Shown: positions 3,001 through 3,941 of the stretch, in pieces
How positions within the stretch are numbered: the first letter of the stretch is position 1
How the letters are laid out: every line of letters begins with the position of its first letter
Virus record (IMG/VR): IMGVR_UViG_2534682295_000019
Length of the DNA: 3,941 bases
Strand: one strand, 5' to 3'
Source of the DNA: a virus
Taxonomy: Duplodnaviria > Heunggongvirae > Uroviricota > Caudoviricetes
Program-made: the position numbers

Positions 3001-3941
3001 GACCTTTGTACGGATGTAACTATGCCAAATTGCAGGCATAAAAAAGCCGCAAAGCTATCGGGTGCGGAGACCGCTTATTTGTTCAGTGCGGTCAGTATGC
3101 GATAGCTCTGGAGGATTTGTCAATCAGCGGAATATTGATGAACGGGTAACGGTAAATGCCTCATCCAGAAAATTAACGCAAATTCGCATCGCAAACTTGC
3201 GTTAATTATCTGAAATATCAAGTTAAATCCCCTTAAATGTTTGGGGCACTATTGGGGCAAAATGTGGTTGTTTGGGGCATATTTGGGGCAAAAAAGAACG
3301 TATAAAGAACGGTGTAAAATTGATTTCTTCATGGTCAAAATGAGGTGTAACAGATTGAAAAATATATGCTCTTGGACGATCTTCGGTAATTCTGTGTTTT
3401 TAATGCTTCATGGTTTCAATATGTCCGTACATGGAATAATAAAGCACCAGAACTTTAGCCATTTCTAACCACTCCTCGTGTTATCTCTATTCCGTAGCGA
3501 TTCGCTACCACTTATTTAAAGATAAGACGTCCTTTTCAGAGTGCAAATTTCACAACCACTTATTTGATTTATAACAACTTTCACAAGCACGCAATTTTGT
3601 CGCAAAATGACACATTTTTATCTCATCGCGTTTTTTTAATCATAAGAGCGGCTTATGGATAATTATTGGAGATGATATCTATTCTCGCTAAGAAGCTGTT
3701 GCAGGATATTACCAAACGCGGGTAGAAACACGTCAGTTCACTAAGCTTAGTCCCACGTAGCGAAAATATGGCAGCCGCCATACGCCGCGTTAATTCTAGC
3801 AATATGATGTCTATACCCAGACGGAGGTCAGTAATGGCAAACCATCGAGGCGGTTCCGGCAATTTTGCAGAAGACCGCGAAAGAGCATCAGAAGCAGGTA
3901 AAAAAGGTGGCAAGAGCAGTCACGGCAAAAGCGACAACTAG

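Follow-up and report, generated by a model that had tools for sequence, protein, structure and literature searches.

A prophage–chromosome junction (attR) of the Sp5/933W type in the 5' end of Escherichia coli wrbA

The 3,941-nucleotide stretch of the IMG/VR virus record IMGVR_UViG_2534682295_000019 analysed here (the window) almost certainly holds the attR site of an Sp5/933W-type lambdoid prophage that was integrated by a tyrosine integrase into the 5' end of wrbA. Positions 3409-3425 make up the int-distal junction between prophage and chromosome (attR, P-O-B'). In the proposed course of events, a phage tyrosine integrase would insert the prophage into the 5' end of E. coli wrbA, with attP and attB (wrbA codons 14-19) recombining within the common core GTTTCAA. 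The right side of the core is host DNA (wrbA codons 1-17, the region upstream of wrbA, and ymdF); on the left side the phage arm comes first, and then ant, the TraR/DksA-like gene and a module of accessory genes of the Ea22 type. The outcome is a split wrbA, the promoter-proximal piece of which has become a 20-codon hybrid ORF ending in Met18-Lys-His-stop from the phage. In related complete genomes, ~62.7 kb separate this piece from the rest of wrbA, which is located beside int and xis at the opposite end of the prophage. No evidence contradicting the junction assignment was found. The features at and around the joint are as follows.

2876-3412, no strand: int-distal attachment arm (P arm), non-coding and bounded by ant and the core, 99.8-99.9% identical to Sp5, VT2-Sakai and Stx2 II.
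3238-3299, plus strand: two tandem 31-bp units, each with two copies of TTGGGGCA; the copies start at 3241, 3252, 3272 and 3283.
3400-3462, minus strand: hybrid remnant ORF (20 codons and a stop), with 17 wrbA-derived residues followed by phage-derived M-K-H-stop (ORF listing and codon table against K-12).
3409-3425, no strand: extended 17-bp att similarity; attB is CATCGTTTCAATATGTC, attP is CATGGTTTCAACATGTC (15/17), and the window carries the attR hybrid CATGGTTTCAATATGTC.
3413-3419, no strand: 7-bp common core (overlap region) GTTTCAA, the same in attB, attP, attL and attR.
3413-3462, minus strand: genuine wrbA coding DNA, running from codon 1 to the second base of codon 17 (blastn 50/50, attB alignment).
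3463-3767, no strand: wrbA-ymdF intergenic region, in which the wrbA ribosome-binding site and upstream (putative promoter) region are kept and face the prophage; identical to Sakai and collinear with K-12.
3768-3941, plus strand: ymdF, encoding a KGG-repeat stress protein (Pfam KGG, K-12 annotation), with the K-12-equivalent start ATG at 3834 (35 aa).

Read from 3462 onward, the minus strand gives ATG GCT AAA GTT CTG GTG CTT TAT TAT TCC ATG TAC GGA CAT ATT GAA ACC ATG AAG CAT TAA. When K-12 WrbA was compared with the whole window by tblastn, residues 1-18 of this ORF were identical to K-12 WrbA (18/18, E = 4e-8), and no credible match to WrbA residues 19-198 was found anywhere in the window. 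The uninterrupted K-12 wrbA was also aligned with the window by blastn; 50/50 nucleotides matched over 3413-3462 and the match stopped exactly at 3413, where the att core (3413-3419) ends. The original prediction, that the frame from 3462 encodes the WrbA N-terminus and then runs into Lys-His-stop, was thus borne out by both the residues and the nucleotides. It had also placed the break after codon 18, at about 3408/3409. This position is right for the divergence of the protein and not for the joint in the DNA, which falls in the core within codons 15-17; Met18 is encoded by the phage. The correction is small, 4-10 bp. Codon-by-codon comparison assigned the first base that departs from intact wrbA to 3412, where the Thr17 codon ACG of K-12 is ACC in the window, a synonymous change. 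Within codon 17 (3412-3414), phage-specific sequence begins at the third base. Codon 18 (ATG, 3409-3411) comes from the phage; it agrees with wrbA because CAT stands on that side of the core in attP and attB alike. Codons 19-21 (AAG CAT TAA) are phage DNA as well, and the amino-acid sequences diverge from codon 19 (3408). The 5' remnant therefore retains only 17 genuine residues of the 198 of WrbA, and a full-length functional WrbA (~198 aa, a flavodoxin-like NAD(P)H:quinone oxidoreductase) is not encoded, the frame being closed by a stop after codon 20.

With an ORF this short and a match of no more than 18 residues, it could be argued that the resemblance to the WrbA N-terminus arose by chance and that no gene is interrupted. 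However, the 50/50 nucleotides shared with K-12 wrbA are followed by ~480 bp of collinear host DNA including ymdF. The whole host side (3413-3941) is identical to that of O157:H7 Sakai (529/529) and ~98% identical to that of K-12, and the host segment was matched in 5,418 of 5,426 complete E. coli genomes. The chance of coincidence is practically negligible, and this explanation was rejected on the basis of the nucleotide and flank identity. Beyond ymdF, a contig of the same type (L007) continues into the rut operon (rutG-rutA) and putA, so that the 5' wrbA piece is contiguous with its normal chromosomal neighbours. Along its chromosomal flank, this contig shows 100% identity to Sakai (3,508 bp) and 97.9% identity to K-12, which points to an O157:H7-like host. 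The 67-bp difference in length from K-12 was assigned by blastn and translation to the loss of one 22-aa KGG repeat in ymdF; the ymdF of the window, like that of Sakai, has one such repeat fewer than that of K-12. A 57-aa ORF starting at 3768, annotated as ymdF in some records, is an upstream in-frame extension that has the K-12 length by chance.

We aligned four sites in register, namely attB of K-12, attP of the free phage Stx2 II, attL of Sakai, and attR of the window and of Sakai. The attB site reads ...GCCATC GTTTCAA TATGTCC... inside wrbA codons 14-19 of K-12, and the attP site reads ...TTCATG GTTTCAA CATGTCT.... CATG thus flanks the core on both sides in attP, and the corresponding flanks in attB are CATC and TATG. 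Since the core is identical in all four sites, the strand exchange must fall inside 3413-3419. In this alignment the window is identical to attP to the left of the core (60/60) and to attB to the right of it (60/60), and the attL of Sakai is the exact reciprocal product of attR. The DNA to the left of the break matched both the int-distal arm of the Stx2 II attP and Sp5 in Sakai at 60/60 positions. Three GenBank records are annotated at the same place. In AP000422, wrbA is described as 'divided by the insertion of prophage' and the att feature maps to 3413-3418 of the window; a 7-bp attachment site in NC_004914 and a 7-bp 'duplication due to insertion' in LC645440 both map to 3413-3419. The integration site of 933W in K-12 wrbA has been reported as CATCGTTTCAATATGTC, the same 17-mer as the K-12 attB in our alignment (10.1101/2022.08.08.503262). 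The claim that a prophage insertion splits wrbA is upheld by the annotated att core at the break, by the attP sequence on its left and by the normal host neighbours on its right.

The recurrence of the joint was evaluated with a 226-bp junction probe (3300-3525), which was compared with 5,426 complete E. coli genomes and counted when at least 80% of its length was matched. The joint was present in 214 of the 5,426 genomes. Essentially all the other genomes matched the probe only from base 110 (window 3409) rightward, in an annotated intact wrbA. These results bear on the reading that wrbA was cut by an IS element, by a deletion or rearrangement, or in an assembly chimera, and not by site-specific integration. 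We found no support for such an event; it was considered since draft contigs often break or are misjoined in prophages. A break exactly at the annotated att core, a left flank identical to the attP of free phages, the reciprocal junction in Sakai and the same joint in the 214 closed genomes and in several independent assemblies all argue against it, and it is extremely improbable. On the evidence of the attP-identical left flank and of the 214 closed genomes with this joint, an IS element, a deletion and an assembly artefact were rejected.

In the att arm, the 31-bp tandem unit (TGTTTGGGGCAnnATTTGGGGCAAAA...) occurs twice in the window, in Sakai and in contig L007, and three times in contigs L008 and L009 (8620-8781). 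Inside the int-proximal arm of attP, at ~70 bp, there is a fifth copy of TTGGGGCA, and no further copies were found elsewhere in 7.7 kb; all five copies are within ~170 bp of the attP core. The TTGGGGCA repeats are candidate arm-type binding sites of the integrase. The Sp5 integrase (436 aa) contains an Arm-DNA-bind_2 domain (PF12167, E = 6e-26) and a Phage_integrase tyrosine-recombinase domain (E = 2e-17), and the gene beside Sp5 int encodes a DUF1233 excisionase. We infer that the integrase would act through the 7-bp overlap, flanking core-type sites and the TTGGGGCA arm repeats. There is a remote possibility that the difference between two and three copies of the 31-bp unit changes the efficiency of integration or excision. 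An inverted repeat of 22 nt, which an accessory protein might bind, is present at 3166-3212 (CAGAAAATTAACGCAAATTCGC / GCAAACTTGCGTTAATTATCTG; 86% complementary, 3-nt spacer); it is situated in the att arm, with a candidate promoter on one side and the TTGGGGCA repeats on the other.

The joint corresponds to a known typing target. The window contains perfect matches to the primers H (CCGACCTTTGTACGGATGTAA) and D (CGAATCGCTACGGAATAGAGA), located at 2999-3019 and 3484-3504, with a predicted product of 506 bp. The phage-wrbA left junction PCR with these primers (H/D, 506 bp) has been used for Stx-phage insertion-site (SBI) typing of O157, with primers taken from earlier work (PMC3519850). The third 31-bp unit in contigs L008 and L009 makes a 31-bp difference and matches the published amplicon size variants of 506 and 537 bp. 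That wrbA is the insertion site of the Stx2 phages 933W and Sp5, as stated in the original prediction, is confirmed by published work (PMC4645166, Table 2; PMC3519850; 10.1101/2022.08.08.503262). The first of these lists Sp5, 933W and further Stx2a phages as integrated at wrbA (PMC4645166, Table 2). Excision and circularisation of Sp5 have also been shown, as has the integration of Sp5-like recombinants at wrbA of K-12 (PMC2669165).

The prophage part of the window is a mosaic, and its genes all lie on the minus strand, as listed below.

1-1733, minus strand: non-Sp5 accessory module with ORFs of 49/51, 185, 63, 145 (Ead/Ea22-like) and 105/113 aa.
1663-1980, minus strand: DUF4752 gene holding the mosaic switch, with Sp5-like DNA to the right (1706-3941) and DNA resembling another O157 lambdoid prophage to the left.
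1977-2198, minus strand: prophage gene for a TraR/DksA-type zinc-finger protein (domain search, annotation).
2246-2875, minus strand: antirepressor gene ant (AntA + P22_AR_C), the last prophage gene before the att arm (domains, record annotations).
2916-3004, minus strand: match to sRNA-Xcc1 (RF02221, Rfam), immediately upstream of ant.

Positions 1706-3941 are 99.9% identical to the right end of Sakai Sp5 (VT2-Sakai) together with its wrbA'/ymdF flank, and to many other O157:H7 genomes. The phage records VT2-Sakai, Stx2 II and Stx1-converting showed 99.8% identity to the window (over 1706-3425 for Stx2 II and Stx1-converting). Positions 1-1705 had no match to Sp5. Instead, the left ~1.7 kb is 98.4-98.9% similar to an Ea22-type accessory module of a different O157 lambdoid prophage (98.4% over 397-1994). 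In FORC_044, the prophage with the related module is located at 3.10 Mb and carries a RacR-type repressor and hokD. The Sp5-like and the other-prophage similarities overlap at 1706-1994, in the DUF4752 gene, which places the switch there. None of the 5,426 complete E. coli genomes matched at least 80% of the window, and the mosaic combination was absent from them. Three draft and several SRA assemblies do contain it. The identical DUF4752 variant (105 aa) occurred in the draft contigs AVSC01000034, AVSF01000034 and AVSJ01000031 and in a few SRA assemblies; the contigs with this variant all end ~0.9 kb beyond the window, just past a hok gene. Contig L007 differs from the whole window by one mismatch. 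With a left ~1.7 kb that is not Sp5, the prophage in the window is not simply Sp5.

The sRNA-Xcc1 match scored 69.1 bits against a gathering score of 53 and covered the model in full length (positions 1-87 of 87). Its distance to the downstream ant start codon is 41 nt, and a sigma-70-like promoter (TTGACA-18-CATACT) is present on the same strand at 3123->3094. One possibility is that the element is an sRNA, another that it serves ant as a 5' leader.

The mosaic raises the alternative that the prophage is an stx-negative, recombinant or degraded lambdoid element that has only the integration module and the right end in common with Sp5/933W and is not toxin-converting. The genes for the A and B subunits of stx1 and stx2 were absent from the window and from the contigs reaching ~0.9 kb beyond it; in Sp5, stx2AB is ~41 kb from the right (int-distal) end. 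The caution in the original prediction that the window alone says nothing about toxin genes was correct. The alternative is favoured by the match of positions 1-1705 to the other O157 lambdoid prophage (98.4-98.9%, not Sp5), by the lack of a complete genome with at least 80% of the window, and by the contigs, which end inside the prophage with no stx in the part covered. The insertion site does not fix the cargo, since Stx1a phages also occupy wrbA in O26:H11 (PMC10042803). On the other hand, 207 of 209 wrbA-occupied O157 isolates were stx2a-positive when typed by the same H/D junction PCR (PMC3519850, Table 5). The host flank is that of O157 Sakai at every position over 3,508 bp, and the mosaic region is accessory (Ea22-type) and far from the place of stx in Sp5. 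We therefore consider an stx-negative element unlikely, while giving it more weight than the other alternatives.

At the other end of Sp5 in Sakai, the 3' wrbA pseudogene directly abuts int and xis. The reciprocal junction, comprising 3' wrbA, the core and int/xis, was demonstrated for Sakai only; the contigs of the window type end ~0.9 kb past the window. In the Sakai attL (L005 2655-2690, outside the window), the int stop codon TGA overlaps an ATG (ATGA). This ATG opens a 192-aa hybrid ORF consisting of MINHILRH followed by WrbA residues 15-198. The ORF still matches flavodoxin-like Pfam families, is without WrbA residues 1-14, and is annotated as a wrbA pseudogene in RefSeq. The ATGA overlap would allow translational coupling of the truncated WrbA to int. 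In flavodoxin-like folds, residues 1-14 of WrbA take in the FMN phosphate-binding loop. Because the segment missing at attL includes this loop, the split would be expected to abolish wrbA function.

On the side of the window, wrbA keeps an intact upstream region and ribosome-binding site, which face the same way as ant and all other prophage genes in the window. A consensus scan of the minus strand from 3462 to 2875 found no terminator-like signal or hairpin. The wrbA promoter is stationary-phase/RpoS-dependent. Since no terminator-like signal separates the wrbA start from ant and the orientation is shared, read-through is conceivable, and there is a slight chance that transcription from the wrbA promoter across attR couples stationary-phase or stress signals to ant expression and hence to spontaneous induction of the Stx prophage.

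The use of wrbA as a site for Stx phages, the att core and the truncated gene are already known from GenBank, the literature and routine genotyping PCR. A wrbA gene occupied by an Sp5/933W-type prophage is well established as a marker of stx2a-carrying O157:H7 genotypes with a clinical association (PMC3519850, PMC4645166). The junction thus marks the source as probably an O157-lineage strain that has a Stx-type prophage in wrbA, and offers no new biology. Slightly past routine are the anatomy of the joint with a phage-encoded Met18, the tie between the copy number of the 31-bp unit and the 506/537-bp amplicons, and the right-end mosaic, found in 0 of 5,426 closed genomes.

Among known systems, the window is most readily compared with Sp5 (VT2-Sakai), with which it shares ant, the TraR/DksA and DUF4752 genes, the att arm with two 31-bp units, the core and the host flank. 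It differs from Sp5 in positions 1-1705, where the module is 98.4-98.9% like that of another O157 lambdoid prophage, with the switch in the DUF4752 gene. For 933W, a wrbA-integrated Stx2a phage, the published site is the 17-bp attB stretch CATCGTTTCAATATGTC of K-12; the right-end genes of VT2-Sakai are annotated as 'similar to' 933W L0139-L0142. Relative to the SBI phage-wrbA amplicon, the window is identical in primer sites and size, and the published 537-bp variant corresponds to the third 31-bp unit (L008, L009). The lambda attP/attB system is similar in its 7-bp identity between attP and attB, in the short inverted CATG motifs that flank the core in attP, in the clustered direct repeats of the arms and in an integrase with arm-binding and catalytic domains (Sp5 Int). 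The core sequence and the target are different, the site being intragenic in wrbA here and intergenic between gal and bio in lambda, and the candidate arm repeats number 4-6 in the int-distal arm and one in the int-proximal arm. Taken at the level of sequence, these features would fit a lambda-type site-specific recombination with a 7-bp overlap.
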